This document shows, in pieces, positions 3,872-61,347 of a stretch of DNA of 64,000 nucleotides. Source of the DNA: a virus. The stretch lies in the IMG/VR virus record IMGVR_UViG_3300003316_000080, positions 3,483-67,482 of that record; one strand, written 5' to 3'. Each line of letters opens with the position of its first letter. The stretch's first letter is position 1. The notes below the pieces were generated by a model. That model did no database searches and had not been told where the DNA came from. It saw only the letters and a program-made list of their open reading frames with translations. The position numbers and the translations under genes were made by a program.

Positions 3872-4942
3872 ATGACTGGGCGGGTCTTTCGTTGGCGTGA
3901 ACTATTTGACGAACATCACGTTCGTTACATAGAGCGCGGCGCCAACGTGAAGCGCGGGGAGATCAACATCAAGTGTCCGTTCTGTGGCGCAGCTGATCCC
4001 AGCTACCACATGGGCGTCAACCTTGAATCAGGCTTTTGGGCCTGTTGGCGTAATGAGAACCACCGGGGCAAGTCGCCGCTGCGTCTCATCGTCACGCTGC
4101 TCAAGGTGTCGTACTACAGGGCCCGCGAGATCGCTGGCTTTGGTGACGACTACATCGATCCCGAGGGCTTCTCTGCTATGGCTGCACGCGTGCTGGGCCG
4201 CGACGGCCTGCTCGCTGGTGGCCGCACGGTTGACGAGGACCGGCAGCACCTGAAGTTCCCGCGTGACTTCGACACGCCACGCCGTCAGCGTGGATCGCGC
4301 GTGTGGAATTACCTCGCACGTGAACGCGGTTTCGGTGTCTTCACAGATGAGTTGATCGACTACTACAGCATCAAGTGGACTCAAGGCGCTGAAGTCAACG
4401 AGAAAGATCCCGACGCGTGGAAGAAGAAATACGCCTGGACGGATCGCGCCATCATTCCGTATTACCTCGACCACAAGCTGATGACCTGGACAGGCCGCAC
4501 GGTAAACGGTCATGCGATCCGCTACAAGGATCTCTCAGTGGACGAGTCCATCAAGCCCCCCAAACAGACGCTGTTCAACTTTGATCGCACGATCAAGGGC
4601 GGTCGGGTGCTGCTGGCTGTCGAAGGTCCCATTGATGCACTGAAGGTCGATTTCTTCGGTGCAGAGGTCAAAGTGCGCGCTGTGGCGATGAGCACCAACA
4701 GCATGACGGATGAGCAGGTATATATGCTGGCCGACGCTGCCGAACGCTTTGACCGCCTGTTGTTCATGCTCGACAACAAAACGCAATTCGGCATCGTCGA
4801 TTCGATGAAGATCAAAGCCAAGCTGAGCCACATCCCGAACGCGGGTGTGATCAGTGTTCCCTACGGCTTGGGGGATGCTGGGGCGCTCAGTCCCAAACAA
4901 GCAACGGAATGGACGGACAAACTTTCTTCGGGGGAGCTATGA
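3872..4942 (+). CDS. putative DNA primase (zinc-binding N-terminus, TOPRIM-like core)
   Basis: CPFCG...ACWRNENH zinc-binding arrangement; LLAVEGPIDALKV and LFMLDNK acidic motifs; position between helicases and polymerase. Confidence 0.5.
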   Translation: MTGRVFRWRELFDEHHVRYIERGANVKRGEINIKCPFCGAADPSYHMGVNLESGFWACWRNENHRGKSPLRLIVTLLKVSYYRAREIAGFGDDYIDPEGFSAMAARVLGRDGLLAGGRTVDEDRQHLKFPRDFDTPRRQRGSRVWNYLARERGFGVFTDELIDYYSIKWTQGAEVNEKDPDAWKKKYAWTDRAIIPYYLDHKLMTWTGRTVNGHAIRYKDLSVDESIKPPKQTLFNFDRTIKGGRVLLAVEGPIDALKVDFFGAEVKVRAVAMSTNSMTDEQVYMLADAAERFDRLLFMLDNKTQFGIVDSMKIKAKLSHIPNAGVISVPYGLGDAGALSPKQATEWTDKLSSGEL

Positions 4943-5259
4943 GGTTCAATCACGAGATGAACACGCATTTCCGCGACTGCACGTTGATCGCGGAAGCCTA
5001 CGACAGTCACCGCGATCGCCACGTGACGCTGCACATCCTGCCGGGCACTGAAGATTGCGTGGGTGTCACGGACGGCACAGACGCGTGGCTGTGCCCGATC
5101 AGCGTGGATGCGTTCGGCATCAACATCGCCAAGGCGCGCTCAGACGTGCGCGACGGCAAAGACCCCATCCGACGACAGAAACCGGCCGCGCGCCGCAAGC
5201 TGTTGCTGGAGGATCAACCCACCAGCAAGACCCGTCGTGCTTTGCTGGTGGAGGTGTGA
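4939..5259 (+). CDS. hypothetical protein
   Basis: ATG preceded by GGGGAG; overlaps primase stop; stop abuts next start. Confidence 0.35.
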   Translation: MRFNHEMNTHFRDCTLIAEAYDSHRDRHVTLHILPGTEDCVGVTDGTDAWLCPISVDAFGINIAKARSDVRDGKDPIRRQKPAARRKLLLEDQPTSKTRRALLVEV

Positions 5260-5260
5260 A

Positions 5261-5848
5261 ATGCGCAAGCAACTCGTTGCACACAAGGTGGCTCCGTTGC
5301 CGTTCGAGGGCAAGATAGCCGGCTACGTCGTGAACAACCTGGAGATGTGGAAGTACGAACCGCTCTTCACGTACAACGACATGATCCAAGAAGCCACGCT
5401 GGTGTGGCTGAAGTGCGGACAGGAATACCCGCACGTCGTCAGTAAACACTTTATGGCCCTGTTCAAGACGGCGTGGTATCGGCGCTGTGTCGATCTCGCC
5501 TATGAAGCATCGGAGTGCCGCGCACAGATCGCGATCACTTTCGGCGATACATACGGTTCGGATGACGAAACCATTGCGCTGGCTAAAGAACCGATGGGCG
5601 ATGAAGAGAACGCGGGCTACATGCGCACCCTGATCCGTCAGATCACGGAGCAGGCACCGGAAGAAGTCGTCAGCGTGTTCACGCTGATGCTCAATGCGCC
5701 GGTTGAACTGCTTGAACTGGCGTCGAACGCACTGGGACGTCGCAACAAGAACAACTCCAACATGATGGTTGCTCGTTGTCTGGGCCTGCCCGATGACAGC
5801 AAGCCTGTAGACGCAGCAAAAAGTTATGTACGCAGCGCACTGAAATAA
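5261..5848 (+). CDS. hypothetical protein, possible sigma-factor-like regulator
   Basis: ATG with GGAGGTG RBS (track ORF 5063 is an upstream extension); weak resemblance of NDMIQEATLVWLK to sigma region 2. Confidence 0.5.
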   Translation: MRKQLVAHKVAPLPFEGKIAGYVVNNLEMWKYEPLFTYNDMIQEATLVWLKCGQEYPHVVSKHFMALFKTAWYRRCVDLAYEASECRAQIAITFGDTYGSDDETIALAKEPMGDEENAGYMRTLIRQITEQAPEEVVSVFTLMLNAPVELLELASNALGRRNKNNSNMMVARCLGLPDDSKPVDAAKSYVRSALK

Positions 5849-5921
5849 GCAAAGCGCTACGTATACTTGTCCAGCTGCACAGAGCAGCAATTTCCAACCC
5901 CCTCCAAAACAAGGAGTTCCC

Positions 5922-6905
5922 GTGAGCAAGATCCAGAAAGAACTGCAGGACGTGACCGGCGTGAATCCGGCCGAGGACCAGTCGATCATCGACCCGGCCT
6001 ACATGAAGAAGGTCGTCAAGGCCGCTTCGAAGGACATTCCCGAGAAGGACTGGGACAAGCTGTCCGAGGAAGCCAAGGACTGGGTCAACGCGGCTGTGGA
6101 CGCGATGAACGAGCGCGAAGACATCAAGCCGTATCCCGACTACAAGGAACCGGCAAAGGAAGAGAAGAAGTCGACCCGCCGCCGCACCGATGATGACGAA
6201 GGCGACAAGCCGGCCGCTGCCGCCTACGCCGTCGGCGACGAGGTCGAAGTGACCAAGACCAACGGCAAGACCGTGGCCGGCGTCGTCAAGAACCTCGATG
6301 ATGACGGCGACCTCGTCCTCGAAGACGAAGAAGGTGAACTGGCCGTGCAGCTGAGCAAGATCGAGGCGGTCGTCGTGACCAAGGCCGCGAAGCCGGCCAA
6401 GGAGGAGAGCAAGCGTCGCCGCAACGATGACGACGAGGACGATGCGAAGGATGCGGGCCCCGGCGTCGGCGACGAGGTCAAGATCGTCAAGACCAACGAC
6501 CGCACCAACGAGGGTGTGATCACCTCGATCGACGAAGACGACATCGTCATCAAGGACGAAGACGGCGACGAGATCACGATCGCCCGCAGCAAGGTCAAGA
6601 CCGTCGAGATCATCAAGAAGGCGAAGAAGGCGTCTGCCAGCAAGTCCGACGTGAAGGACGACGCCAAGGACGACGAAGGCGACGGCAAGCGCAAGCGCGC
6701 CGGCAAGGGCGAGGATGGCGTGTCCGCCGCGCAGCGCGTCTTCGAGATCATGTGCGAAGACCCGCTGGACCCGCCCTCGCTGGAAGAACTGACCAAGCAG
6801 ATCCAGAAGGAAGGCCGCGACTGCAACGCCAACACGCTGAAGATCAACCACACGACCGCGTCGAAGATCTTCACGCTGCTGAAGGCCGGCAAGCACCTGA
6901 AGTGA
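5922..6905 (+). CDS. highly acidic protein with two tandem KOW-like repeats
   Basis: GTG start after AAGGAG; repeats GDEVEVTKTNGKTVAGVV.. and GDEVKIVKTNDRTNEGVI..; D/E-rich linkers. Confidence 0.6.
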   Translation: MSKIQKELQDVTGVNPAEDQSIIDPAYMKKVVKAASKDIPEKDWDKLSEEAKDWVNAAVDAMNEREDIKPYPDYKEPAKEEKKSTRRRTDDDEGDKPAAAAYAVGDEVEVTKTNGKTVAGVVKNLDDDGDLVLEDEEGELAVQLSKIEAVVVTKAAKPAKEESKRRRNDDDEDDAKDAGPGVGDEVKIVKTNDRTNEGVITSIDEDDIVIKDEDGDEITIARSKVKTVEIIKKAKKASASKSDVKDDAKDDEGDGKRKRAGKGEDGVSAAQRVFEIMCEDPLDPPSLEELTKQIQKEGRDCNANTLKINHTTASKIFTLLKAGKHLK

Positions 6906-6941: not shown

Positions 6942-6977
6942 AGGGGCCCTGTATATTGCGGGGCCCCTTTTCTTTTG
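6942..6977 (+). terminator. rho-independent terminator
   Basis: GGGGCCC/GGGCCCC stem followed by TTTTCTTTT. Confidence 0.6.
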
Positions 6978-6988
6978 TCGGAGAACCC

Positions 6989-8155
6989 ATGACCACAATC
7001 GACAGAAGCTCGATCATGCGAGCGTGCGCCCAGGTGCGCCCCGCAGTGAGCAAACAGCCGTTCATTCCCGCGTTCACGCACTTCTGCTTCAACGAGGGTG
7101 CCGTGTTCGCATACAACGACACGCTGCTGCTCATGATGTCGTTGCCTGACGACGCGGCCGAGATGCCATCTTGCTGCGCGCCTGCCGACGTACTGACAGA
7201 AGCCCTGCGCAGCATGGGCGGCGACACAATGGAGGTGCAGCACGACACTGACTCTCGCGAACTGCACATCAAGGCCGGCCGCTCGAAGTTCAACCTCAAG
7301 ACGCTGCCGACGGAAGACTTCCAGATGCACCTGGAGCTACCCACGGCCGAAGAGAAGAAGCGCGGCTGGAAGTTTGATGCGTCTGCCGACTTCATCGAAG
7401 GCTTGCGGGCCTGCCGTATGGCCGTAGGCAACAACCCCAACCATCCGGCCTCCATGGGCATCACGCTGGGTAGTGTGAGCGGCAATGCGGTGCTGTACGC
7501 AACGGACAACGTGACCATCACGCGCTATGCCGTCGACATGGAACACGATGGAGAAGATGACGCGATCCTGCCCACACCATTCTGCGATGCCCTGCTCAGC
7601 TTCGCAAAGGCCATGCCCAACGACAGGATCGAGATCTCTGTGCTGCGCGGCGTGGTGAGCGCCACATTCCACGATAAGCGGGACAAGCACGGGATCGGCG
7701 GCGTCATCGTCACGAAGACACTGACAGACTTGGCCGCCCTCGACTATGAGCAGATCATGCGCAAGCACGTGGACATGAAGCGCGTGGCGGACATTCTGTC
7801 ACCGCTGCCGGCAGACATGGGTGCTGTGTTCGAGCGTGCCGCCGCAGTCGGCGTGGATGAGCCGCGCACCACACTGCGCCTTGTGTCGGGCTCCGATAAC
7901 GAGGTCAGCGTCAGCGCATCGGGCGTGGGTGCTCAAGCGTCAGACGTGCTCGTGTTCGATGGCAAGCGCTCAGACGAAGCTTTGGCCGCGCTCGACGAAG
8001 AAGCGGAAGACGTCAATGCTGCGCATGTGCTGCGCGCGGTCAAACACACTGACCGACTGGCTTTCGTCAAGAACGCGCTGCTGTTCGGAGACGCTAAAGC
8101 GAAGCTCCTTCACCTCGTGGGGTATATGGCACCCATCAAGAAGTCCAAGAGGTAA
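6989..8155 (+). CDS. DNA polymerase sliding clamp (beta/DnaN-like)
   Basis: ~388 aa; SKFNLKTLPTEDFQ resembles the DnaN RFSLSTLPAADFP segment; adjacent to polymerase and clamp loader. Confidence 0.55.
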   Translation: MTTIDRSSIMRACAQVRPAVSKQPFIPAFTHFCFNEGAVFAYNDTLLLMMSLPDDAAEMPSCCAPADVLTEALRSMGGDTMEVQHDTDSRELHIKAGRSKFNLKTLPTEDFQMHLELPTAEEKKRGWKFDASADFIEGLRACRMAVGNNPNHPASMGITLGSVSGNAVLYATDNVTITRYAVDMEHDGEDDAILPTPFCDALLSFAKAMPNDRIEISVLRGVVSATFHDKRDKHGIGGVIVTKTLTDLAALDYEQIMRKHVDMKRVADILSPLPADMGAVFERAAAVGVDEPRTTLRLVSGSDNEVSVSASGVGAQASDVLVFDGKRSDEALAALDEEAEDVNAAHVLRAVKHTDRLAFVKNALLFGDAKAKLLHLVGYMAPIKKSKR

Positions 8156-8158: not shown

Positions 8159-10792
8159 ATGTCGTTTTTCTTCGCAGAGACAAAGCGCGCCAAGAAGACA
8201 GGCGCTCCGTCGAAGAAGGCCGTGATCCCCATCGCAAGCCTGCAGCGTGCCGGCTGCACTGTATGTCCGCGCAAGGCAGACTGGGACGACGGCATCAAGA
8301 CGCCACAGATGAAACCGGCCGGCCATCAGTCGCCGACGGTGTATCTGCTAGGCACGGCCCCGTCTGAGAAGGAAGACCGACTGGACGAGCCCTTTGTGTC
8401 CACAGCCTATGAAGAGGTGCTGTCGAAGTTGCCGGCGTCTCTGAGGCGGTATAGCCGCGTCGGCTATCTGACGCAGTGCAAGGCCGCCAGTAAAAACTTG
8501 ATGCTGGAGATGTCGCCGGACCACGCGGAGATCGAGTGCTGCCGTCCTCGCGTGATCGCAGACATCGAAGAGACGAAGCCGATTGTCGTGATCGGCATCG
8601 GCGACAAAGCGCTTAATTGGGCCCTCCCCTTCTCATCGGGCGTCACCTCGATCACGCATCGAGGCACCTTGTTTCCGGTGAAGTTCGGGACGCACACGTG
8701 CTGGTTTTACAGCGTCATGTTCCCGGCATATGTGCACCGAGAAAAGCGCAAGTATCCGACTGAGTACGAGATCGCGCTGACGCACGACCTACGCAATCTC
8801 GCTAAGTTGATCAACAACGAAGAGATTGGTGTTCCGAAGATCTACGCAGACAAGTGGGAAGAGGGTATCGAGATCGTGACAGGTCACGATGCCGGAGACT
8901 TCCAGCGTGTGGAGCGCGCACTTGCAGACATGGCAGCGCTGCCCGATGTCGCACTCGACATCGAAACCAATGGCCTGCGGCCCTGGCACTTGAACAAGCC
9001 CAGGTTGTGGACTGCCGCAGTAGGCACATTCGAGCGTGTGATCGCCTTCCCGATTGATCATCCTGACGGCTGGGGCGCTGACGCGCGCATCCGCAAGATG
9101 CACGGTCTGTTCGCTGAGTGGCTGTGGCAATCGCGCCGGAAGTGGGCACATAACCTTGCAATGGAACTGGAGTGGTTTAACTGGTTCTACAGTCCGCACG
9201 CGATCATGGGCAATGAGTGGGGCGACACGATGGCCCTTGCCCATGTACTCGACGAGCGCAAGGGCACGAAGTCATTGGAGGTGCAGACGATCATTGGCGC
9301 CGGCTTCAACCTGAAGTCCATGAGTCCAGTTGATCCGTCGTTGCCTGACTGGATCAGTAAGTACCCGATTAAGACGGTGCTGAAGTACAACGGTGGAGAC
9401 TCGAAATGGACGGACTTCCGTCGCCGCCAGCTGCAGCCGATCGTGGAGGCCGACGAAAAGCTCCATGACGTCTATCAGCACAAGATTCGAATGGCGCCGG
9501 CTTTGATCCTCACAGAGGCCAAGGGCCTACCGGTGTCTGTGCCGCGTGCTGAGAAGATGAATCGCGCACTGACGGAGCAACTGCACAAGATTGAAGACAA
9601 GCTGCGGGCTGATGTGGCTGTGCGCCGCCATACAACGCAGTTCGGCCAGTTCAGCCCGACGAACTCCGATCATGTGCTCGCGCTGATGGAAAAGACCCTC
9701 AAGCGCGATGAGATCTACATCATTGAGAAAGACGGGTCTGAGTCGAAGTCAGTCGCTGAAGAAGTGCTGGCGCTGATGCCTGAAGATGAGGTGCCATCAG
9801 CGAAGTTGATCCTGGAGCACCGGGGCATCTCCAAGCTGAAGTCGACGTATCTGGAGCCAGTGATCAAGGGCACGATGATCAGCGTCGATGGCTATGTGCA
9901 CTCGAAGTACAGCAGTCTGTTCGCCGCGACCCACCGCCTGAACTCTGAAGATCCCAACGCGCAGAACTGGCCTAAGCGCAAGCACAAGGAAGTTCGCTCG
10001 ATCTTCTACGCGGAAGATGATGAAGAGATTCTGGCGTGCGACTACGGCCAGATCGAGTTCCGCGTCGTGGGCATGTGCTCGGAGGACGACAACCTGTGCC
10101 GGGCCGTGTGGACCGGGTACGACGTGCACTTGCACTGGGCAGAGCGGATCGTCGCCCTGTATCCCAAGATCAAGGACTGGATCAGATCAGAGTTCGAGGT
10201 GGACTGGGATGAGAAGGGCATCAAGACGCTGCGCCAGGAGGCCAAGAACAAGTGGGTGTTTCCGCAGTTCTTCGGTGCCTCGATCAAGTCGTGTGCAGCC
10301 TCTCTGCACTTGCCTGAAGAGGTCGCGCAGGATCTGGCTGATGAACTATGGGATGAGTTCCGAGGCGTCAAGCGCTGGCAAGACAAGTTGATGGAGTCGT
10401 TTGCGCGCAAGCTCTACGTGGAGACGCTGGACGGTGCGCGCCGTCGTGGGCCCATGACCAAAAACGAGATCATCAACATGCCGATCCAGGGCACAGCGGC
10501 CCGCATCGTGCAGACCGCGCATGCAGCTTTGGCTGAACGCGGCTTCATCATGGATCGCGGCGTGTATATCCCATCGCTGAACGTACATGATGACCTCTCA
10601 ACCTGGAGCAAGAAGGCAGAGCGGGAGGCCAACGTGAAGATCATCGTCGAAGAGATGTGCAAGCACCGATTTGACTGGATCAACGTGCCGCTGCTGGTGG
10701 AAGTGTCGGCCGGGCCTGACTGGTCCGACCTGACCGAGATCGGCAAGTACAGCAGCCATGAGCTGTTCAACATCAGGAACCCTTACCAATGA
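8159..10792 (+). CDS. DNA polymerase, family A, with N-terminal uracil-DNA glycosylase (family 4-like) domain
   Basis: N-term GTAPSEKEDRLDEPFV (UDG family 4 motif); exo DIETNG; pol motifs DYGQIEFRV, QGTAARIV, NVHDDL. Confidence 0.85.
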   Translation: MSFFFAETKRAKKTGAPSKKAVIPIASLQRAGCTVCPRKADWDDGIKTPQMKPAGHQSPTVYLLGTAPSEKEDRLDEPFVSTAYEEVLSKLPASLRRYSRVGYLTQCKAASKNLMLEMSPDHAEIECCRPRVIADIEETKPIVVIGIGDKALNWALPFSSGVTSITHRGTLFPVKFGTHTCWFYSVMFPAYVHREKRKYPTEYEIALTHDLRNLAKLINNEEIGVPKIYADKWEEGIEIVTGHDAGDFQRVERALADMAALPDVALDIETNGLRPWHLNKPRLWTAAVGTFERVIAFPIDHPDGWGADARIRKMHGLFAEWLWQSRRKWAHNLAMELEWFNWFYSPHAIMGNEWGDTMALAHVLDERKGTKSLEVQTIIGAGFNLKSMSPVDPSLPDWISKYPIKTVLKYNGGDSKWTDFRRRQLQPIVEADEKLHDVYQHKIRMAPALILTEAKGLPVSVPRAEKMNRALTEQLHKIEDKLRADVAVRRHTTQFGQFSPTNSDHVLALMEKTLKRDEIYIIEKDGSESKSVAEEVLALMPEDEVPSAKLILEHRGISKLKSTYLEPVIKGTMISVDGYVHSKYSSLFAATHRLNSEDPNAQNWPKRKHKEVRSIFYAEDDEEILACDYGQIEFRVVGMCSEDDNLCRAVWTGYDVHLHWAERIVALYPKIKDWIRSEFEVDWDEKGIKTLRQEAKNKWVFPQFFGASIKSCAASLHLPEEVAQDLADELWDEFRGVKRWQDKLMESFARKLYVETLDGARRRGPMTKNEIINMPIQGTAARIVQTAHAALAERGFIMDRGVYIPSLNVHDDLSTWSKKAEREANVKIIVEEMCKHRFDWINVPLLVEVSAGPDWSDLTEIGKYSSHELFNIRNPYQ

Positions 10793-11754
10793 CACGACGC
10801 AAACTGGCCGATGAAGTCACGCACGGTAAAGACCTCGCGCAGCGCTGGCGACCTCGCAATCTGGGTGAGGTGGTCGGACAAAGCGCAGTGGTTCGCTCGC
10901 TCGAAGCGATGCTGAAGCGCGAGACGCGTCCGCACTGCTTCATCTTCACTGGACCCTCGGGCGTGGGCAAGACCACACTGGCGCGGATCGTCGCTCAGGA
11001 GTTGGGGGCACAGCACAACATTGTGGAGATCGACGCTGCGACCAACACGGGCGTTGACGCAATGCGTGATGTGCTGGCAGGCACGATCTACAGCGGCTTT
11101 GGCAGCAACTCCAAGTTCTATCTGATCGACGAGGCACACATGCTCTCGAAGGCAGCGTGGAACTCGATGTTGAAGACGCTGGAGGAACCACCCGACCACG
11201 TTTACTTCGCGATCTGCACGACGGAGCCAGAGAAGCTGCCGGCAACGATCAGCACACGCGGTCCTGTCTATGCACTGAAGTCTGTGCCGCGCAAGGACAT
11301 CAGCAACCACCTGATCCTGATTGCTGAAGAAGAGAGCCTGGAAGTCACAGATGAGGGGCTGGATAGGATCGCAGAGGCTGCTGGCGGCTCGCTGCGCGCT
11401 GCGATCAACATGATGGTTGCAGCAGACGGTGTGAGGGGTGATGACCTGGATGACATCATCGAACGTGCAGATGCGGGCGGCAACAAGCAGGTCATTGATC
11501 TGGCCCGCGCATTGGTCAACGACCAACTGACGTGGACGAAGCTGACGGGCATCCTGAAGGATCTGGAGGGCCAGAGCGCGGAGGGCGTCCGCATTGTTGT
11601 GGTCAACTTCACAGCTGCGTGCTTGATGAAGGCCACATCAGACAAGCAGATCGCACGGCTGTTGAACGTGCTGCACGCCTTCTCCACCCCATACACCACA
11701 GCCGACAAGATGGCACCCTTGCTCCTCTCGTTCGGCAACCTTCTGTATAAGTGA
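10789..11754 (+). CDS. AAA+ clamp-loader subunit (DnaX/RFC-like)
   Basis: Walker A GPSGVGKTT, Walker B YLIDEAHML, sensor TRGP. Confidence 0.7.
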   Translation: MTRRKLADEVTHGKDLAQRWRPRNLGEVVGQSAVVRSLEAMLKRETRPHCFIFTGPSGVGKTTLARIVAQELGAQHNIVEIDAATNTGVDAMRDVLAGTIYSGFGSNSKFYLIDEAHMLSKAAWNSMLKTLEEPPDHVYFAICTTEPEKLPATISTRGPVYALKSVPRKDISNHLILIAEEESLEVTDEGLDRIAEAAGGSLRAAINMMVAADGVRGDDLDDIIERADAGGNKQVIDLARALVNDQLTWTKLTGILKDLEGQSAEGVRIVVVNFTAACLMKATSDKQIARLLNVLHAFSTPYTTADKMAPLLLSFGNLLYK

Positions 11755-12257: not shown

Positions 12258-12375
12258 ATTTTTGGCATTGGTAGTGGGCGCAGTCGGCGGCGTGCTGGCG
12301 GTCTACATCTGTGTGCGGGTCGCCTCAGCCGCATATTTCAAGTCACTGAGGCAACACAATGAGGAAACCAAATGA
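12250..12375 (+). CDS. small hydrophobic protein (41 aa)
   Basis: ATG..TGA ORF MSEFLALVVGAVGGVLAVYICVRVASAAYFKSLRQHNEETK, one predicted TM helix; too short for the ORF track. Confidence 0.3.
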   Translation: MSEFLALVVGAVGGVLAVYICVRVASAAYFKSLRQHNEETK

Positions 12376-13601
12376 GAAACCGTGACGATGATGACCGTGG
12401 TTCGCGCCGTGGTCGCGATGATGACGATGACCGCCGCAGCAGCCGTGGCCGTGACAGCGGTTCGAGCCGTGGCGGTTTCGTCTACAAGCAGCGCAGCGCC
12501 GAAGAGAACCGCAAGCGCGCCGAGAACACCGGACGAGACTTCGAGTCGATTTACAAGGACGGTGTCAACCTATACAAGGTCAAGGACGGCGACAACAGCG
12601 TCCGTGTGCTGCCGCCGACGTTCAAGGGCGCCCAGCACTACGGACTCGACATCCAGGTCCACTTCGGCATCGGGCCCGACCGCGCGACGTACCTGTGCCT
12701 CAACAAGATGCTGGACAAGCCGTGCCCGATCTGCGAGGCACGCCAAGAAGCGCAGCGTGACGGGGACGACGAACTGGCGAAGGAACTGGCACCCAAGCAG
12801 CGTGTTCTCGTCGCCCTGATCGATCGTGATGATGAGAAGGCCGGTGTGCAGATCTGGGGCATGCCCTGGACCGTCGACCGTGACCTGGCCCAGGTTGCCG
12901 TCGATCGCAAGACCAAGGAAGTGCTGCCGATCGACCATCCTGAAGAAGGGTATGACGTCTTCTTCACGAAGACGGGCAAAGAGCGCAACACGAAGTACGG
13001 CGGCATCTCTGTGGACCGGCAGCCGTCAGAACTCGGCCGGCGCGGCGACGAGTGGCTGGACTGGATTCAGGAACACCCGCTGGACACGCTGCTGAACTAC
13101 GCCAGTTACGATGACATCGCCAAGGCGTTCAACGGCGGCGGCTCTGGTGGCGGTTCGCGTCGTCGCGATCGCAGCGATGACGACGATGACCGCTCTTCGC
13201 GTCGTGGCCGTGATCGTGACGATGACCGCAAGAAGGACGATGTCCTGTCGTGGGATGACGTTCACGGCATGAAGCCGCGCGAACTCGAAGACCTCGCAGC
13301 TGAGCACGGCATTAAGTCGTCCAAGTACGACGATGACGAAGAACTGGCTGACGCGATCTGTGAAAAGCTGGACATCAGCAAGCCCAAGCCGCGACGCTCG
13401 CCTGGACGTGATGGCGATGACGACGATGACCGCTCTTCGCGTCGTGGCCGTGATCGTGATGACGATTCCAATGAGAAGACGGCGCGTCGTCGGTCCAATG
13501 ATGACGACGAGGACGACACCCCGCGCACCCGTCGCCGTGAGGCCAATGACGACGATGACGCGGAAGAAGGTCTGCGCAAGATGCGCCGCCGCGCGGAGTG
13601 A
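12372..13601 (+). CDS. gp32-like single-stranded DNA-binding protein with Arg/Asp-rich repeat termini
   Basis: H-x12-C-x8-C-x2-C (HFGIGPDRATYLCLNKMLDKPCPIC) matches the T4 gp32 zinc-site pattern; located between clamp loader and RecA-like gene. Confidence 0.55.
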   Translation: MRNRDDDDRGSRRGRDDDDDRRSSRGRDSGSSRGGFVYKQRSAEENRKRAENTGRDFESIYKDGVNLYKVKDGDNSVRVLPPTFKGAQHYGLDIQVHFGIGPDRATYLCLNKMLDKPCPICEARQEAQRDGDDELAKELAPKQRVLVALIDRDDEKAGVQIWGMPWTVDRDLAQVAVDRKTKEVLPIDHPEEGYDVFFTKTGKERNTKYGGISVDRQPSELGRRGDEWLDWIQEHPLDTLLNYASYDDIAKAFNGGGSGGGSRRRDRSDDDDDRSSRRGRDRDDDRKKDDVLSWDDVHGMKPRELEDLAAEHGIKSSKYDDDEELADAICEKLDISKPKPRRSPGRDGDDDDDRSSRRGRDRDDDSNEKTARRRSNDDDEDDTPRTRRREANDDDDAEEGLRKMRRRAE

Positions 13602-19709: not shown

Positions 19710-20651
19710 ATGACTGTCTATTACAACGAGTTCAATCTGCACGCAGCCAAGTGGATTAGCAATCTGATCAAGGCAGGTTTGATAGCACCCGGGATTGTCG
19801 ACACAAGGAGCATTGAGGATGTCAGACCGCGAGACTTGCGAGGGTTCAAGCAGTGTCATTTCTTCGCCGGAGTGGGCGTGTGGAGCTATGCACTCCGACA
19901 AGCGGGATGGGCAGATGACAGAGAGGTCTGGACAGGTAGTTGCCCCTGCCAACCTTTCAGCTCGGCAGGCGCAAAAGCTGGGTTTGATGACGAGCGGCAC
20001 TTGTGGCCCCACTTCCACTGGCTCATCGGCGAGTGCCGACCTACAGTCATTTATGGAGAGCAGGTTGCAAGCAAGAACGCGGACCCTTGGATCGACCTTG
20101 TATGTTCTGACCTGGAAGCCTTGGGTTACGCCTTCGGGGCGGTCCCGTTTGCGTCAGCGGGCGTCGGCGCCCCGCACGCGCGAGAGCGTACGTACTGGAT
20201 GGCCCACACCAACAACAAGGGACTGGAAGGACGGCAAGGGTTGCGACAACGTACCGGCGAACGCGCTGCTGGGGCGTGTGGTGTGGCTGGCCGGTTGGGC
20301 AACGCCGACTACGTTGCACAACAAGCGGACGGAGGCTTTCGCGGCGGGCCGCACTCCGACGCCTTCGGAAGTGCTGCCGACCTGCCAGCCGGCCCGACTA
20401 ACGGCTACTGGAAAACTGCTGACTGGCTCTTCTGCCGGGATGAGCAGTGGAGGCCCGTTGAACCCGGCACATTCCCGTTGGCTGATGGCGCTGTTGCCAG
20501 AATGGGACGCGTGCGCGCCTATGGAAACGCTATCAATGCTGAGCAAGCCCGAATCTTTATTGAAGTGGGCATGGAAGCCTTGCACGCCCAGACACAAGCT
20601 GAGAACACCTCGGCATCAACTGCGCGGAAGCAACTGAGAGGCCCTACGTGA
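19710..20651 (+). CDS. DNA (cytosine-5)-methyltransferase
   Basis: Motif I FFAGVGVW, motif IV GSCPCQPFSSAG, ENV-like YGEQV, motif VIII LEALGYAFGAVPFASAGVGAPHARERTYWMA, motif X-like RAYGNAINAEQA. Confidence 0.7.
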   Translation: MTVYYNEFNLHAAKWISNLIKAGLIAPGIVDTRSIEDVRPRDLRGFKQCHFFAGVGVWSYALRQAGWADDREVWTGSCPCQPFSSAGAKAGFDDERHLWPHFHWLIGECRPTVIYGEQVASKNADPWIDLVCSDLEALGYAFGAVPFASAGVGAPHARERTYWMAHTNNKGLEGRQGLRQRTGERAAGACGVAGRLGNADYVAQQADGGFRGGPHSDAFGSAADLPAGPTNGYWKTADWLFCRDEQWRPVEPGTFPLADGAVARMGRVRAYGNAINAEQARIFIEVGMEALHAQTQAENTSASTARKQLRGPT

Positions 20652-20881
20652 AGATCACTGACGTGTCCAACAAGAAGACAGTGGTGTGTGGCTTCACATG
20701 CTGGCATTGCCGCCGCGTGGTGTTATCTGGTGGCGCCGCTGAAGTCGTCGAGATCTCGATCAAGTTGCGGCCGGGCGCTGACAGACGTGAGCGTGCAAAC
20801 CGCCTGAGAATGGCCCGTGCTGAACTGCGCCATGCCCTTGCTATATTCCGCGCCAACAAAGAACTTGAGGACCTCGCATGA
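20648..20881 (+). CDS. small zinc-ribbon protein
   Basis: GTGA overlap upstream, ATGA overlap downstream; CGFTCWHC cysteine cluster. Confidence 0.4.
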   Translation: MKITDVSNKKTVVCGFTCWHCRRVVLSGGAAEVVEISIKLRPGADRRERANRLRMARAELRHALAIFRANKELEDLA

Positions 20882-23370
20882 GTGTGCGTTGTGTTGACTG
20901 CCTTGTGGGCCTGCGCCAGCTTCCAGATGCATCCGTTGATGCCATCGTCACGGATCCGCCCTACGGCCTGAGCGAGCAGAAGCCAGCGGAACTCGCTGCT
21001 TGCATCGCTGCATGGCTGGCCGGCGAGGTCTACCAGCCGAAGGGCAAGGGCTTCATGGGCAAGTCCTGGGACGCCTGGGTGCCTGGGCCCGAAGTCTGGC
21101 GCGAGTGCTTCCGCGTTCTCAAGCCGGGCGGACACATCCTGGCCTTCGCCGGCACGCGCACGCAGCACTTGATGGCGCTGTCGATGGCCCTGGCTGGATT
21201 CGAAATCAGGGACATGATCGCCTGGGTGTATGGCTCCGGGTTTCCGAAGTCGCTGGACGTGTCGAAGGCGGTCGACAAGGCAGGCGGAGCCTCGCCCGTC
21301 GAGCAGGCTGAACTGCTGCGCCGCAAGCGCGTGGCGGCCGGCCTGACGCGAGAGCAGGTCGCGGAACACTGCGGGTGCACTCCATCGAGCGTTCGAGACT
21401 GGGAAGAAGGCCGAGCGCGCGCCGTCGGTGCCGCCGTTGAGTTCATCGTCCCGAGCGACGAGTACCGCACCAAGCTGGCCGACTTGCTCGGTTACAGCGT
21501 GGACGAGCGCAAGCTGATTGGAACCTCGGCTGACCGGCGCGGCGATGGCACCGTCTACGGGGTGGGCCACAGCGGAGAGTTGCGCGCTGGCGGCAACACC
21601 GACGCTGCCCGCCAGTGGGAAGGCTGGGGCACCGCCCTGAAGCCGGCCCTTGAAACGGTTACTTTCGCTTCAAAGCCGTATACCGAAGAGCAGGAACGGA
21701 GTATAATTCAATCGAACCTAATTCGATTGGAGGCCCGTTTATGGTTGCTGTCGTCTGCGAGTGCTGCGGAAAAGAGTTCAACGTCAAGCCAAAGCGAGTA
21801 CGGCGCGGCGTGCGCTATTGCTCAATGGAGTGCCGACGAAATCACCAGTACACGGGCCGCTTTGTGCGGTCAGATGGATACGTCGCTGTTCGAGTGGGCA
21901 GCGACTACCAGCTTGAGCATCGTGTCGTCATGGAGGCGCACATTGGTCGAAAGCTGGAGCGATGGGAGCACGTCCACCACCGAAACGAAGTCAAACACGA
22001 CAACCGACTCGAGAACCTTGAAATTCTCACTGTCGCAGATCACGCCGAGCACCATCATCAAGGCCTGCAGCCTTCCCGGTGGGTTCAATGCGAATGCCTC
22101 CACTGCGGAAAGCCACTTCAACGCCTCGCTGTTGTTGTTGCAAAGCATCCGCACACTTTCTGCGACCGAGCCTGCTATATCGCAGGCGCAGCACGAACAC
22201 CTGGGCGCGGGCGTAAAGCCGAACCTTGATCCATGCATCATGGCGCGCAAGCCGCTGGTCGGAACGGTCGCGGCCAACGTTCTGGAGCACGGGACGGGGG
22301 CGCTGAATATCGACGGGTGCCGCGTGGGCGATGAGGAGCGGGTGAACGGCGCCGGATCTGTGACCTCGCTTCAGCGTCAATCACGGGTCGCGGCGGGATA
22401 CCGCGATGATGCTGGCGTTGGCCCAGGCTCTGACGCGAAGACCGTTGTTGGCCGTTGGCCCGCCAACCTGATCCACGACGGCAGCGACGAGGTGCTGGCG
22501 GCGTTCCCGAACGCGCCTGGTCAACTCGCGACGGCGAGCACCAGCGACACGCAGCGCTCCGGACAGAACACCTACGGTGCGATGACCCGTGGCAGCACGG
22601 GACAAGAACCGCGCGACGAGCTCGACAAGAGCGCCGCCCGATTTTTCAAGGAGTGTGCATGGGACGAACCTCGATCTGTTGCGAGCACTGCCGCGCAGCC
22701 TTTGTGCCTGCAAAACCAAGTCGCCGATTCTGTTCAGAGCGCTGCAGCAACTTGGGCCAGCCTCGCGGGAATACTCTCAAACGATTCGAAGGAACGTTCT
22801 ATGAACGTAACTCCGATCGAGTCAAGAGCGATCGCAGAAACCGTTATCACTGCGACGACGAGTATCGCAAGCGGGTTCTCGCTCGAGTCGCAGCACGAAA
22901 GGCTCACCCCGTGCCGCAGCCTTGTGAAGACTGTGGTGCGCCGAACGCCGATCGGCATCACGACGATTACGACAAGCCTCTCTCGATCCGATGGAAGTGC
23001 CGGAGCTGCCACGTTCACCATCACGCCGACGAGCTTGGATCGTGGGGATCTGGGCTCGCGGTTTGAGTACTGCGCCAAGGCTAGCAAGAAGGATCGCGGC
23101 GAGGGTAACAACCACCCTACTGTCAAGCCGACCGCGCTGATGCGGTATCTCGTCCGCCTTGTTACCCCTCCGGGTGGCACTGTACTTGATCCTTACACGG
23201 GCTCTGGTTCAACAGGAGTGGCCGCGCAAGCGGAAGGCTTCAAGTTCATCGGATTTGAGAATGACCCTGCTTCTTGTGCGATTGCAAACAGGCGAATGGG
23301 ACTCACGGGCCTGCTTGCTGTGAACAAAGAGCGCCGCCAGCTGCGTCTTCGCAAGCAGTTGATTGAGTGA
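20878..23370 (+). CDS. N6-adenine/N4-cytosine DNA methyltransferase (DPPY class), open frame interrupted by two HNH-gene inserts
   Basis: N-term VTDPPYGL; embedded XRE-like HTH; GWGTALKPA../..ARKPLVGTVAANVLEHGTGALNIDGCR; C-term HPTVKP and VLDPYTGSGSTG; 830-aa frame with no stop. Confidence 0.7.
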   Translation: MSVRCVDCLVGLRQLPDASVDAIVTDPPYGLSEQKPAELAACIAAWLAGEVYQPKGKGFMGKSWDAWVPGPEVWRECFRVLKPGGHILAFAGTRTQHLMALSMALAGFEIRDMIAWVYGSGFPKSLDVSKAVDKAGGASPVEQAELLRRKRVAAGLTREQVAEHCGCTPSSVRDWEEGRARAVGAAVEFIVPSDEYRTKLADLLGYSVDERKLIGTSADRRGDGTVYGVGHSGELRAGGNTDAARQWEGWGTALKPALETVTFASKPYTEEQERSIIQSNLIRLEARLWLLSSASAAEKSSTSSQSEYGAACAIAQWSADEITSTRAALCGQMDTSLFEWAATTSLSIVSSWRRTLVESWSDGSTSTTETKSNTTTDSRTLKFSLSQITPSTIIKACSLPGGFNANASTAESHFNASLLLLQSIRTLSATEPAISQAQHEHLGAGVKPNLDPCIMARKPLVGTVAANVLEHGTGALNIDGCRVGDEERVNGAGSVTSLQRQSRVAAGYRDDAGVGPGSDAKTVVGRWPANLIHDGSDEVLAAFPNAPGQLATASTSDTQRSGQNTYGAMTRGSTGQEPRDELDKSAARFFKECAWDEPRSVASTAAQPLCLQNQVADSVQSAAATWASLAGILSNDSKERSMNVTPIESRAIAETVITATTSIASGFSLESQHERLTPCRSLVKTVVRRTPIGITTITTSLSRSDGSAGAATFTITPTSLDRGDLGSRFEYCAKASKKDRGEGNNHPTVKPTALMRYLVRLVTPPGGTVLDPYTGSGSTGVAAQAEGFKFIGFENDPASCAIANRRMGLTGLLAVNKERRQLRLRKQLIE
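21741..22229 (+). CDS. HNH homing endonuclease nested in MTase gene
   Basis: Own GGAGG RBS; CxxC clusters; EHVHHRNEVKHDNRLENLEILTVADHAEHHH; +2 frame relative to MTase. Confidence 0.8.
   Translation: MVAVVCECCGKEFNVKPKRVRRGVRYCSMECRRNHQYTGRFVRSDGYVAVRVGSDYQLEHRVVMEAHIGRKLERWEHVHHRNEVKHDNRLENLEILTVADHAEHHHQGLQPSRWVQCECLHCGKPLQRLAVVVAKHPHTFCDRACYIAGAARTPGRGRKAEP
22659..23066 (+). CDS. HNH homing endonuclease nested in MTase gene
   Basis: AAGGAG RBS; CEDCGAPNADRHHDDYDKPLSIRWKCRSCHVHHH; +2 frame relative to MTase. Confidence 0.75.
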   Translation: MGRTSICCEHCRAAFVPAKPSRRFCSERCSNLGQPRGNTLKRFEGTFYERNSDRVKSDRRNRYHCDDEYRKRVLARVAARKAHPVPQPCEDCGAPNADRHHDDYDKPLSIRWKCRSCHVHHHADELGSWGSGLAV

Positions 23371-27501: not shown

Positions 27502-27921
27502 ATGGACGAAAAACGCAAACGTGGTCGGCCGGCTGGAGCAATGAACAAGCTCAGTCAGGAGGCTGTCAACCTCGCAAAGCAGACAGGTAAGTTGCCCCAT
27601 GAGATCTTGCTAGAGATCGCACGGGGCAATCCCATTTGTGTGCTGAGTATGGAAGAAGGCGTTCTGAAGCCTGTCTATGTCATGACAGATCCTGCACAGG
27701 TGCTTGATGCAGCAAAGGCAGCAGCACCGTACTTCGCGCCGAAGATTTCTACAGTTGAAGTGATTGCAGGGGTATCTGACCATGAACTTGATCGCATCAT
27801 TGCGCTCGCTGCCGCCGAAGCAGGCATTAGCCTTGGCGCTAGCGGAGAAGGCGAAGAGACAGAGGAAGAGGAACCAACTGAGCGAAGCAGCCGAAAGGGC
27901 CGTAGACAGCTACGCGAGTGA
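27502..27921 (+). CDS. terminase small subunit
   Basis: N-terminal KRKRGRPAG DNA-binding-type motif, PYFAPK motif, acidic tail; directly upstream of large terminase. Confidence 0.6.
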   Translation: MDEKRKRGRPAGAMNKLSQEAVNLAKQTGKLPHEILLEIARGNPICVLSMEEGVLKPVYVMTDPAQVLDAAKAAAPYFAPKISTVEVIAGVSDHELDRIIALAAAEAGISLGASGEGEETEEEEPTERSSRKGRRQLRE

Positions 27922-60011: not shown

Positions 60012-60812
60012 TCAGCCCATGAACGGCTCCGGCTGCGACATCACCTCCCGATGACGACGCACGTGCTCTTCCAGGACCGCCAGCATGTTGGGAGCGATGT
60101 AGTTCACACCCTTGATCCACTTGCCGTCAGGTGTCTTGTCGATCTTGCCGGTCGCCGGGTTCGCCTTGGAGGCGTTTCCGCGATTGGCTTCGACGAAGGC
60201 TTCGCGCCCAGGCACACCGGCCGCGAGAGAGAAGCCAGCTGTGACCACGGCAACGTCAGCGGCGCCGTCGATGATCTCTTTGAACATGGACAGAGGCGGG
60301 ACCGTACTCCAATGGTCGGACACGCTTTCCAGCAGTTTGCGGATCTTCTTGGATTGATAGCCCATGTTCGATCGAACTTGCTCAATCGAGATCACTGCAT
60401 CTCGCAGGGCCGGTGCTTCGTTTCCACACCTCGACGCCAGGATTGCCACCAGCGCTTCACCCAGTTCACTGGCTTCTTCCAGGATCAGTGCGTAGTACAT
60501 CAGCGCACCCTTGTTGATCTCCGGCAGGTACGGCAGCTTCTGATCGGACGCAGCCATCAGGTGGCGCTGCAGAGCCCAGATGTCGACGCAGCCCAGCTTG
60601 TCGGCCGCCTTGCGCTCTTCCGGCTGCATAGTCTTCTTGGCTTCGTGCCACCAGTAGGCCAGCAGCGCCGTTGCGAACACACTCGCAATCAGAAGCACGG
60701 TCAATTCCGTGTTCCAGCCGTTGGCGTAGGCAGCGTCTAGTCCACGCACGATCTGCGTGACGCTGAACACGATGAGGACCAAGAACAGGTCCGCGAGGTT
60801 GAATCGTTTCAT
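60012..60812 (-). CDS. membrane-anchored protein, possible MazG-like NTP pyrophosphohydrolase domain
   Basis: GGAG RBS; two N-terminal TM helices; YYALILEEASELGEALVAI weakly MazG-like. Confidence 0.4.
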   Translation of the reverse strand: MKRFNLADLFLVLIVFSVTQIVRGLDAAYANGWNTELTVLLIASVFATALLAYWWHEAKKTMQPEERKAADKLGCVDIWALQRHLMAASDQKLPYLPEINKGALMYYALILEEASELGEALVAILASRCGNEAPALRDAVISIEQVRSNMGYQSKKIRKLLESVSDHWSTVPPLSMFKEIIDGAADVAVVTAGFSLAAGVPGREAFVEANRGNASKANPATGKIDKTPDGKWIKGVNYIAPNMLAVLEEHVRRHREVMSQPEPFMG

Positions 60813-60841
60813 GTTTTCTCCAGTGTGGTTCGTGTGGTGGC

Positions 60842-60958
60842 TCAGGTCGGCTGCGTGTGCTTGTACAGCGTCAGTCCGAAGACCTTGACGCGAGTCACGA
60901 GCAGATTCATGTGTGTGGCCGTTGCCGTGCGCTCGTAGGTGGTGACGACGTGGATCAT
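60842..60958 (-). CDS. hypothetical small protein (38 aa)
   Basis: GGAG RBS then ATG. Confidence 0.25.
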   Translation of the reverse strand: MIHVVTTYERTATATHMNLLVTRVKVFGLTLYKHTQPT

Positions 60959-60999
60959 GGAAAACTCCAAAGTGGTTGGGGTGGCGGGAAGATATACAG

Positions 61000-61347
61000 T
61001 CAGCGACGACCAAACGGATTGCGCTCGCGCTTCCACTGGGCCTTCTGTTTGCGCGGCTTGGCAGGTCCGTGGTTGTCCAGTTCTTCCGTATAACCTACGG
61101 ACACAGGCATGGTTTCCATTTGCGCCAGCAGGTGTCTCTCTATGTCGGAATAGTCCACCTCCCCCAATTGAGTTCGCTGCTGTTCACGCGAGGACTCTTG
61201 CCGGCTGCGCATGATCGCGTCCAGAGTGGTGACGACCCGTCCTGTGACCGTCCTCACTACTAGTGTGATTGCTTTTCCTGTTGGAGGCGGTATGTCTCGC
61301 CCAAGGCCAACCGGCGCGTTTCGGCCCTTGTCGTCTTCAGTGTTCAT
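61000..61347 (-). CDS. hypothetical protein
   Basis: Leftward operon member. Confidence 0.4.
   Translation of the reverse strand: MNTEDDKGRNAPVGLGRDIPPPTGKAITLVVRTVTGRVVTTLDAIMRSRQESSREQQRTQLGEVDYSDIERHLLAQMETMPVSVGYTEELDNHGPAKPRKQKAQWKRERNPFGRR

Follow-up and report, generated by a model that had tools for sequence, protein, structure and literature searches.

The 64,000-nucleotide stretch of viral DNA analysed here (positions 3,483 to 67,482 of IMG/VR record IMGVR_UViG_3300003316_000080, hereafter the window) encodes a family A DNA polymerase whose N-terminal domain folds like the uracil-DNA glycosylases (UDGs) of family 4 but has probably not its activity. The three residues considered crucial for uracil excision are substituted in the window protein and throughout the clade of its close relatives. 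Our reading of the alignments is that the uracil pocket has been dismantled while the scaffold, a putative iron–sulfur (Fe-S) site, and the DNA-backbone surface have been preserved. The explanation we favor, with a probability of roughly 70 per cent, is that the gene encodes a clamp-dependent family A replicase in which the pocket-dismantled UDG domain would act as a non-catalytic, structural module for handling the template.

The gene is an ATG-started open reading frame (ORF) of 877 amino acids plus stop. It begins four nucleotides past the stop of the preceding gene, with a GAGG-type ribosome-binding site a few bases upstream. Given this site and the motif M-[SGA]-F-F that homologs keep at the N-terminus, the start codon is right. 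Secondary structure and profile matches divide the protein into five parts, namely a tail (residues 1–21), the UDG-like domain (22–220), a linker (221–246), the exonuclease domain (247–430), and the polymerase domain (431–877). The features of the gene are as follows.

8159..10792, + strand: complete gene for the UDG-like / 3'-5' exonuclease / family A DNA polymerase (ORF list, Pfam, PHROG, AlphaFold2)
8159..8221, + strand: N-terminal tail, residues 1–21, a conserved M-S-F-F-F followed by a Lys-rich disordered linker (model confidence, conservation)
8222..8818, + strand: family-4 UDG-like domain, residues 22–220, predicted to be non-catalytic (Pfam, profile against the PDB, Foldseek)
8255..8266, + strand: C33-T-V-C36, the first two candidate [4Fe-4S] ligands, invariant in 78/78 homologs and corresponding to the CxxC of TM0511 and Thermus thermophilus UDGA
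8351..8377, + strand: degenerate motif A, G65-T-A-P-S-E-K-E-D73 (canonical GE(A/G)PGxxED), with Thr66 in place of the catalytic Glu (alignments)
8465..8479, + strand: Y103-L-T-Q-C107, with Y103 in place of the uracil-recognising Asn of the 'N-V-V-K-C' element and C107 a candidate Fe-S ligand
8534..8545, + strand: E126-C127-C128-R129, with C128 the fourth candidate Fe-S ligand and C127 an extra conserved Cys (conservation, alignment)
8720..8740, + strand: degenerate motif B, F188-P-A-Y-V-H-R194 (canonical H-P-(S/A)-x-x-x-R), with His replaced by Phe and Arg kept (alignments)
8897..9448, + strand: 3'-5' proofreading exonuclease domain, residues ~247–430, with the ExoI–III carboxylates intact (conservation, NCBIfam)
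9449..10789, + strand: family A polymerase domain (thumb, palm, fingers), residues 431–877, with a conserved C-terminal tail (Pfam, phmmer, Foldseek)

An earlier, sequence-only reading of this gene (the original prediction) had proposed a UDG-like domain fused ahead of the exonuclease and polymerase domains in one 877-residue ORF, and Pfam, profile, and structure matches agree on this arrangement. The full-length AlphaFold2 model (predicted local distance difference test score, pLDDT, 92.7; predicted template-modelling score, pTM, 0.89) has residues 1–20 as its sole low-confidence stretch (pLDDT <50). In this model the UDG-like, exonuclease, and PolA parts, in that order along a single polypeptide, are predicted to fold as one compact unit. 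The whole polymerase matches PHROG 17 (DNA polymerase) at E = 2e-88. An identical protein (P0005) lies on a 67,482-bp metagenomic contig and also on one 5.8-kb Logan contig.

The family-4 signature on which the fusion had been proposed is literally present in the N-terminus, as G65-T-A-P-S-E-K-E-D73 (nucleotides 8351–8377) followed by P78-F79 (8390–8395). The domain had been assigned to the first ~190 residues; a UDG fold does lie there, but its extent is different, with the fold running from about residue 22 to 220 after a 21-residue disordered tail. Pfam PF03167 (UDG) covers residues 57–202 at 27.9 bits, against a gathering cutoff of 24.3. TIGR00758 (UDG_fam4) matches the isolated N-terminus at E = 1e-11, with a score (44.7 bits) far under its curated cutoff of 125.3. 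A single-sequence phmmer search of the PDB returned UdgX chains (E = 5e-7), from entries titled 'Phage SPO1 DNA polymerase-related protein'. A domain profile built from five sequences (alignment A1) matched TM0511, Sulfolobus tokodaii UDG, and T. thermophilus UDGA at E = 3e-15 to 7.5e-15, and also the N-terminus of the phiLo family A polymerase structure 9qhs_A (E = 1.4e-4).

Structure prediction, which the original prediction had named as a check on the fold, returned a fold of the family-4 type. The AlphaFold2 model of residues 1–260, computed from an 82-sequence alignment, has a pLDDT of 90.6 and a pTM of 0.82. Foldseek matched it to T. thermophilus UDGA (1ui1), UdgX (6l6s), 4zbx, and TM0511 (1l9g) at E = 5e-12 to 1e-9, with target-normalised TM-scores of 0.69–0.79 against family-4 UDG and UdgX structures, and to the phiLo polymerase (9qhs_A) at E = 1.2e-5. 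These matches, which are far beyond chance, confirm that the N-terminal domain has a family-4-type UDG fold.

Family-4 UDGs are recognised by a motif A of the form GE(A/G)PG, a motif B of the HPAAVL type, and a [4Fe-4S] cluster (PMC10359453). The residues proposed to be crucial in UdgX are E52 of motif A, N91 and H178, both hydrogen-bonded to the uracil, and R184, a DNA-backbone contact (PMC10359453); in the phiLo DNA polymerase the catalytic residues have been named as E53, P55, and H178 (bioRxiv 10.1101/2025.03.26.645540). We mapped these positions onto the window domain from three sources: profile-to-structure alignments, a direct multiple alignment, and an hmmalign alignment of 272 homologs with TM0511 and T. 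thermophilus UDGA. All three agree that the motif-A Glu corresponds to T66, the uracil-binding Asn to Y103, and the motif-B His to F188. Conservation was counted, here and below, over seventy-eight clade homologs with 46–58 per cent identity to the window polymerase.

T66 aligns to the Glu of GEGPG in TM0511 and T. thermophilus UDGA and of GEAPG in phiLo. Across the clade this position is variable (T30/S15/A14/G11) and never Glu. At position 103, where hmmalign places the Asn of TM0511 and of T. thermophilus UDGA and the profile-to-structure alignment the N of 'ICN/ITN', clade members mostly have Y, H, or F, with G also occurring. Position 188, which aligns to the His of HPS/HPA in the solved family-4 UDGs, is always aromatic (Y49/W19/F10) and never His. 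The alignment to UDG families that had been recommended as a check of the catalytic residues therefore finds E, N, and H all substituted, and the suggestion that the domain may be catalytically inactive gains support from the replacement of all three throughout the clade. Compared with what defines a family-4 UDG, the window domain keeps the four-cysteine pattern, lacks the motif-A Glu, the Asn, and the motif-B His, and scores below the TIGR00758 cutoff. From these substitutions we judge that the domain is probably catalytically inactive as a uracil glycosylase, and we put the chance that it does not cleave uracil at roughly three in four.

The distribution of these substitutions among homologs bears on when they arose. 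A word-indexed search with the full protein found at least 198 clusters at E < 1e-30. The best 120 of these are nearly all 860–890 residues long and 46–58 per cent identical over their full length, and many are on contigs of 60–76 kb that look like complete phage genomes. The same type of search with the N-terminal domain alone gave only four matches. An exhaustive HMMER search with the domain profile yielded 415 representative clusters (50 per cent identity level) at E ≤ 1e-30 and 1,432 at E ≤ 1e-10, and in nearly all of its top matches the domain stands at the N-terminal end of a protein ~835–890 residues long.

Among the 272 retrieved homologs, ninety-two have both the motif-A Glu and the motif-B His. 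The aromatic motif-B state is found in 118 of the 121 full-length homologs at 45 per cent identity or above, and homologs at 25–42 per cent identity are mostly of the E/D-N-H type, the closest of these being P0129 (42.6 per cent identity). Asn occupies position 103 in 95/99 of the E/D..H-type relatives, and P0129 scores 82 bits against the Pfam UDG model, compared with 27.9 bits for the window protein. Since the close relatives are degenerate and the remoter ones mostly E/D-N-H, the loss of E-N-H is derived. By this distribution the window clade is a derived branch of a UDG-PolA lineage that would have been active ancestrally, with all three pocket residues replaced.

Among cultured phages, Edwardsiella phage vB_EpM_ZHS is the nearest relative (51.6 per cent identity over the full length), followed by some thirty-nine Vibrio siphophages of the SSP002/MAR10 type (Mardecavirus; ~36 per cent identity over 94 per cent of the length). 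With hundreds of metagenomic sequences in addition to these phages, the clade is abundant but undescribed. The fusion as such is widespread among cultured phages: tblastn with TM0511 found it in SPO1-like phages, CP-51, SP-10, PMBT14/Serbin-like phages, Rhizobium jumbo phages, MaInes, Microcystis and Microbacterium phages, and phiLo, and matches in BFVD agree.

The rest of the domain has been retained almost as well as the catalytic domains. Clade members share on average 49 per cent pairwise identity in the UDG-like domain, 57.5 per cent in the exonuclease, and 60 per cent in the polymerase, and the fraction of invariant columns in the UDG-like domain (9 per cent) equals that of the exonuclease. 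This near-catalytic-domain conservation argues that the domain is still functional and not decaying, and it points to purifying selection. C33, C36, C107, and C128 are each found in 78/78 homologs and align with the four cluster-ligand cysteines of TM0511 and T. thermophilus UDGA, so positioned that the window domain putatively carries a [4Fe-4S] cluster. In family-4 and family-5 UDGs this cluster is reported to have a structural, loop-anchoring role (PMC5295032). Around the fourth cysteine, E126 is found in 75/78, C127 in 77/78, C128 in 78/78, and R129 in 77/78.

The framework of the fold is likewise kept, with P68, P189 (the latter in 78/78 homologs), D73, and R168-G169 conserved. Among the equivalents of residues that contact the DNA backbone, R168 is present in 77/78, an aromatic residue at 191 in 78/78, and K or R at 194 in 70/78; position 194 corresponds to UdgX R184, a DNA-backbone contact in UdgX structures (PMC10359453). 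Other conserved arginines are R100 (78/78), R131 (78/78), and R129, given above. The original prediction had also called the domain a DNA-binding module. These conserved contact equivalents and, by analogy, the phiLo cryo-electron microscopy (cryo-EM) structure described below lend this idea support, and we infer such a role with corresponding caution.

Several side observations concern the cysteines. At positions 33/36/107/127/128, canonical family-4 enzymes and some homologs read C-C-C-A-C, and the window clade reads C-C-C-C-C (181/272). About fifty-five homologs read C-C-[TS]-C-C, having lost C107 and kept C127, a pattern which suggests that C127 can stand in for C107 as a cluster ligand. 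In addition, some relatives have insertions of ~260–330 residues with intein-like boundaries within the UDG-like domain, which match Pfam Intein_splicing below threshold (20–25 bits against a cutoff of 35.8). Inteins are typically located at functionally critical sites. The intein-like insertion of P0224 (EIE/C...VSN/CCRP) falls exactly at the invariant E-CC (window residues 126/127, nucleotides 8534–8539), and that of P0164 falls at the C107 position (window nucleotides 8477–8479). In five further long homologs (P0160, P0208, P0219, P0226, P0260) the domain is split into two stretches in the same region.

The mechanism that we favor can be set out as follows. The gene product would be the replicative, clamp-dependent family A DNA polymerase of an uncultured tailed phage. 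Its N-terminal domain would descend from an active family-4 UDG that was already fused to the polymerase in the ancestor. In one sub-clade the uracil pocket would then have been lost (T66 for E, Y103 for N, F188 for H), and uracil excision with it, probably, while the fold, the four cysteines for a [4Fe-4S] cluster, and the basic and aromatic backbone-contact residues were retained in the domain. Its most likely place is next to the fingers and the exonuclease, by analogy with the phiLo and YerA41 cryo-EM structures and with an AlphaFold survey of UDG-PolAs. From there the domain would thread or hold the single-stranded 5' template some nucleotides in front of the insertion site, through R168, Y191, and R194. 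The putative Fe-S cluster would have a structural role in anchoring loops, and processivity itself would come from the co-encoded clamp.

Three published observations are relevant to this mechanism. In the cryo-EM structure of the phiLo DNA polymerase, the UDG domain binds the 5' template, with a deoxyuridine (dU) five nucleotides ahead of the polymerase site (bioRxiv 10.1101/2025.03.26.645540). Models of UDG-PolAs all put the UDG domain between the exonuclease and the polymerase (PMC10201439), and for an inactive UDG a part in processivity or structure has been suggested (PMC10201439).

Some points weigh against a non-catalytic template-handling module. When the full-length model was searched against the PDB with Foldseek, phiLo DNA polymerase 9qhs was not among the top fifty matches, all of which are Klenow, Bst, Taq, and Pol theta cores; a phiLo-like domain arrangement is suggested by the general statement in the literature. 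The UDG superfamily is also catalytically plastic. Family 2 (MUG/TDG), with motifs GINPG and MPSSSAR, consists of active glycosylases, and family 5, with a motif A of GLAPA, is active as well (PMC10359453). The missing E and H are therefore no proof against every glycosylase activity. Furthermore, several non-canonical positions are strongly conserved in the clade (H179 in 74/78, D73 and Q106 each in 77/78, H78/W79 in most members), and these could form an altered pocket.

These points lead to the first alternative, that the domain is still an active glycosylase whose pocket has been re-tooled, as in MUG/TDG or families 5 and 6, and which would remove uracil or another base ahead of the fork. 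Such an enzyme would account for an intact and confidently modelled fold, for a domain almost as conserved as the catalytic ones, and for the clade-specific polar residues, among which E126 (75/78) can be counted with H179, D73, and Q106. Other UDG families are active with different residues in motifs A and B (PMC10359453), and the sister clades contain active-type UDG-PolAs; activity has been shown biochemically for the phiLo and YerA41 polymerases (bioRxiv 10.1101/2025.03.26.645540). We nevertheless consider a re-tooled glycosylase unlikely. All three pocket residues have been lost together, and position 66 varies among T, S, A, and G, unlike a replacement catalytic residue. The bulky aromatics at 103 (Y/H/F) and 188 (Y/W/F) would more likely fill the uracil pocket than re-tool it. 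Of the remaining conserved residues, most (D73, I136-E137, R168-G169, P189) also occur in canonical family-4 sequences and belong to the framework, and the TIGR00758 score, given above, is far under the cutoff.

A related proposal, to which we give slightly less credence, is that the domain is a cluster-bearing 'reader' or wedge on the template, which would sense template damage or modified bases in front of the fork or couple replication to redox state, or else a glycosylase with a new, non-uracil specificity. If either were true, the clade would hold a repurposed glycosylase fold in a replicase, unlike the N4-like enzymes, where the domain is fully decayed, and the SP15- and SPO1-like enzymes, where the UDG is active.

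It is more doubtful still that the domain works as a non-cleaving 'read-ahead' sensor, flipping and binding a uracil or modified template base without excising it and stalling or modulating the polymerase, in the manner of the uracil-sensing pocket of archaeal family B/D polymerases or of UdgX with its tight uracil binding. The phiLo domain does read the template five nucleotides ahead of the polymerase site, the DNA-backbone contact residues are kept in the window domain, and 7-deazaguanine genes near the polymerase in clade relatives and in an active-type sister indicate that modified templates are common in the lineage. However, the equivalents of the N and H that hydrogen-bond uracil are gone, which makes specific uracil recognition unlikely, and the window has the same degenerate domain without the 7-deazaguanine genes, so that its role would be independent of that modification. 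Least probable is an N-terminal region that serves mainly as a protein–protein platform (for the clamp, helicase/primase, or repair factors) with incidental DNA contact: the conserved M-S-F-F on a disordered Lys-rich linker, the location of the gene between the clamp and clamp-loader genes, and the reported role of SP15-like DNA polymerases as a platform for recruiting a PolX are in keeping with it, but on the folded domain most conserved surface residues are basic or aromatic and lie at UdgX/phiLo DNA-contact positions (PMC10359453), and the motif idea applies to the 21-residue tail and not to the fold behind it, and would be compatible with a template-handling UDG module.

The exonuclease and polymerase domains have the residues expected of a working replicase. 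D267 and E269 (ExoI), E336 (ExoII), and Y410 and D414 (ExoIII) are invariant in the clade; an alignment to NCBIfam PRK05755 spans residues 248–858, and PF01612 is annotated on several close homologs. Pfam DNA_pol_A (PF00476) covers residues 465–856 at E = 5e-54. phmmer matches Taq and Klenow at E~1e-33, in alignments that include motif A (D628/E633) and motif C (H810-D811-D812). These residues and R692/K696/F701/F705 align to Taq and are invariant or nearly so. F704/F705 are aligned with Taq L670/Y671 of the O-helix, with a Phe at the Y671-equivalent position B3. With Foldseek, the full-length model matches Klenow, Bst, Taq, and Pol theta cores at target TM-scores of 0.80–0.84 (Klenow 0.84) over ~640–700 columns, and from its superposition on the Klenow and Bst cores the exonuclease and polymerase core has no large insertions. 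Judging by these conserved residues, the enzyme should both polymerise and proofread.

Both ends of the protein carry conserved peptides. The N-terminal peptide of the window polymerase is MSFFFAETKRAKK and its C-terminal end is ...SHELFNIRNPYQ. In the tail, F3 is invariant and M1 and F4 are kept in at least 90 per cent of homologs; the N-terminal pentapeptides include MSFFY, MSFFF, MGFFY, and similar forms, which can be summarised as M-[SGA]-F-F-[YF]. The last thirteen residues (10751–10789) contain a conserved [HD]-E-[LI]-F-x-x-x-N-P-Y, in the window E-L-F-N-x-x-N-P-Y. Because the gene is located between the sliding-clamp and clamp-loader genes, both termini are candidate short linear motifs for binding the clamp or another partner.

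The window belongs to the genome of an uncultured tailed phage of ~67 kb. When its first 25 kb were compared with cultured phages by megablast, only short methylase matches were found, and the phage itself is not in the collection. The genes on either side of the polymerase are as follows.

6956..8155, + strand: DnaN-type sliding clamp, immediately upstream of the polymerase (Pfam DNA_pol3_beta; PHROG 947, processivity factor, E = 4e-34)
10789..11754, + strand: clamp-loader AAA+ subunit, overlapping the polymerase stop codon (Pfam DNA_pol3_delta2; PHROG 5846, clamp loader, E = 1e-73)

The order clamp, polymerase, clamp loader is kept in phage ZHS and in metagenomic relatives. In the window, the replisome genes begin with a FEN-like 5'-3' exonuclease, a DnaB-like helicase, an SNF2-type helicase, a primase, two unknowns, the DnaN-type clamp, and the UDG-PolA. 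They continue with the clamp loader, one unknown, a gp32-like single-stranded-DNA-binding protein (SSB), RecA, a RuvC-like resolvase, Mre11-like and Rad50-like proteins, and DNA methyltransferases. The SSB (12372–13601, + strand; Pfam gp32 at residues 71–210, PHROG 34306) has charged, Arg/Asp-rich low-complexity tails at both ends, with RDDDDRSSRRGRD repeats. Just upstream of the clamp (5922–6905, + strand) is a very acidic protein of 327 residues with an unusually high GC content at third codon positions (0.88). It has two internal repeats and weak KOW/SH3-like matches, all under the Pfam cutoffs. The ORFs scanned, which are a part of those in the window, included neither a dUTPase nor a stand-alone UDG.

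Some relatives have 7-deazaguanine genes beside the polymerase (QueC, FolE, with or without QueD, QueE, and a TGT-like gene). These include ZHS, P0021 (of the window clade), P0129 (active-type), and the more distant Brevundimonas phage MaInes. The module lies directly upstream of the clamp and UDG-PolA and consists of QueC, FolE, a TGT/DpdA-like protein of ~276 residues, and sometimes a nucleoside 2-deoxyribosyltransferase. Its coordinates are 15134–18893 in L001 (ZHS), 5550–8750 in L010, 518–3232 in L009, and 13851–16169 in L008. At the same position (3872–6905) the window has the primase, a 261-residue unknown, and the acidic 327-residue protein. None of the ZHS module proteins was found by tblastn in the 64-kb window, outside which lies ~3.5 kb of the 67.5-kb contig. 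We considered a link between the degenerate UDG and 7-deazaguanine modification and rejected it, as the window is without the module and both active-type and degenerate polymerases occur with it.

Elsewhere in the window, the large terminase (27764–29629, + strand, 621 residues; Terminase_3 at residues 93–282) has an intein-like element in its C-terminal half, with Intein_splicing, Hint_2, and PT-HINT matches at residues ~455–588. A protein of 830 residues (20878–23370, + strand) has two N6_N4_Mtase stretches and a helix-turn-helix domain. A 759-bp part of its gene (21596–22354 region) shares 90.9 per cent nucleotide identity with a DNA methylase of Cylindrospermopsis phage Cr-LKS3, and there are shorter matches to methylases of Rhodobacter phages, which suggests that the methylase module was recently gained by horizontal transfer. 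A second methyltransferase is located at 19795–20637. On the opposite strand (60012–61013), the C-terminal part of a 333-residue protein resembles a phage nucleotide pyrophosphohydrolase family (PHROG 671, E = 1.6e-13).

For annotation, these results are mainly a correction. The cultured relatives are named just 'DNA polymerase I', and some metagenome pipelines already label the family 'DNA polymerase I-like.../uracil-DNA glycosylase', so that the fusion as such had been picked up automatically; the pipeline label 'uracil-DNA glycosylase family 4' would wrongly imply a capacity for uracil repair. Beyond annotation, a single lineage with a syntenic replisome contains UDG-PolAs of the active type (E-N-H) as well as degenerate ones, which amounts to a natural separation-of-function series. 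With it, one can ask what, other than uracil excision, a PolA replicase gains from its UDG domain; Czernecki et al. (2023) left this question open for the N4-like enzymes. If the cluster is present, these would be PolA replicases that carry an Fe-S cofactor without a catalytic glycosylase role.

UDG-PolA fusions are already well documented, and neither the fusion itself nor an inactive UDG will surprise a specialist. The window protein is, however, not a close member of the N4-like, SPO1-like, or SP15-like groups. Czernecki et al. (2023) described the N4-like enzymes (cluster #17), which have an inactive, truncated family-4 UDG, and also noted SPO1, SP-10, SP-15, and 'other, unclassified UDG-PolAs', of which some have the full set of catalytic residues (PMC10201439). 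Missoury et al. (2025) defined the SP15-like enzymes and showed that their UDG removes template dU ahead of the fork (bioRxiv 10.1101/2025.03.26.645540). Neither paper mentions iron–sulfur clusters or cysteines in UDG-PolAs.

The N4-like enzymes too are PolAs of ~860–880 residues from phages of Proteobacteria, with a UDG-like domain at the N-terminus that derives from family 4 and has not conserved its catalytic residues, an intact 3'-5' exonuclease, and a Phe at O-helix position B3 (PMC10201439), and a structural or processivity role has been proposed for their dead UDG. These common traits, the lost catalytic residues and the B3 Phe included, are insufficient for membership, which we rejected on two grounds. 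BLASTP to the N4 DNA polymerase gave 21 per cent identity over the exonuclease and polymerase only, with no N-terminal alignment, and hhalign of the UDG profile against the N4 N-terminus gave a probability of 0.4 per cent. An N4-like entry in BFVD (Vibrio virus SBP1) was a weak match (E = 7.9e-3). The N4 domain is ~180 residues long, is without all four Fe-S cysteines and the motif-B Pro, and is described as missing a helix and a beta-hairpin, whereas the window protein has a full-size family-4 fold with invariant cysteines and is encoded alongside its own clamp and clamp loader. Because the sister clades of the window are active-type, inactivation in the window clade appears to be independent of that in the N4-like enzymes.

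The SP15-like enzymes (phiLo, YerA41, SP-15; PDB 9qhs) share the N-terminal UDG, exonuclease, and PolA, and the phiLo UDG is of the family-4 type with CxxC...C...C; 9qhs is the best structural template for a possible contact of the window domain with the 5' template. They are larger (1,140–1,310 residues), with Insert 1 in the exonuclease, Insert 2 in the thumb, a C-terminal domain of ~80 residues, and an active UDG (bioRxiv 10.1101/2025.03.26.645540), and their source phages have hypermodified thymidine. In contrast, the 877 residues and Klenow/Bst-like core of the window protein leave no room for such inserts, and its E, N, and H are substituted.

The SPO1-like enzymes (SPO1 gp31, CP-51, SP-10) have the same order of UDG, exonuclease, and PolA, and come from phages of Firmicutes with hydroxymethyluracil DNA. 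SPO1 gp31 still has its Glu in motif A (Q-E-N-P-F) and its His in motif B (H-P-N) and is without any of the four cysteines; the window protein is the reverse, with G-T-A-P and F-P-A and the cysteines kept. The gp31 group is also the origin of the name 'phage SPO1 DNA polymerase-related protein' that databases give to family-4 UDGs.

The stand-alone family-4 UDGs (T. thermophilus UDGA, 1ui0; TM0511, 1l9g/1vk2; S. tokodaii, 4zbx) and UdgX (6ail and others) share the fold, the four-cysteine pattern, and a framework consisting of the motif-A Pro, the following E-D, R-G, the motif-B Pro, and an Arg six residues past the position of the motif-B His. They are free, active enzymes of ~190–210 residues with GE(A/G)PG, N, and HP(S/A), in contrast to the polymerase-fused G-T-A-P-S, Y103, and F-P-A of the window. 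The nearest cultured counterparts, the polymerases of ZHS and of the Vibrio SSP002/MAR10-type phages, have the same degenerate UDG (G-S-A-P-S and Y-P-N in ZHS), and in the records of both the protein's sole annotation is 'DNA polymerase (I)'. What distinguishes ZHS is a set of genes directly upstream of its clamp, comprising QueC, FolE, a TGT-like gene, and a nucleoside 2-deoxyribosyltransferase, all of which the window is without. Across these systems, what would set the window protein apart, on the alignments, is the combination of a lost triad with retained Fe-S cysteines in a clade whose closest outgroups are active-type.

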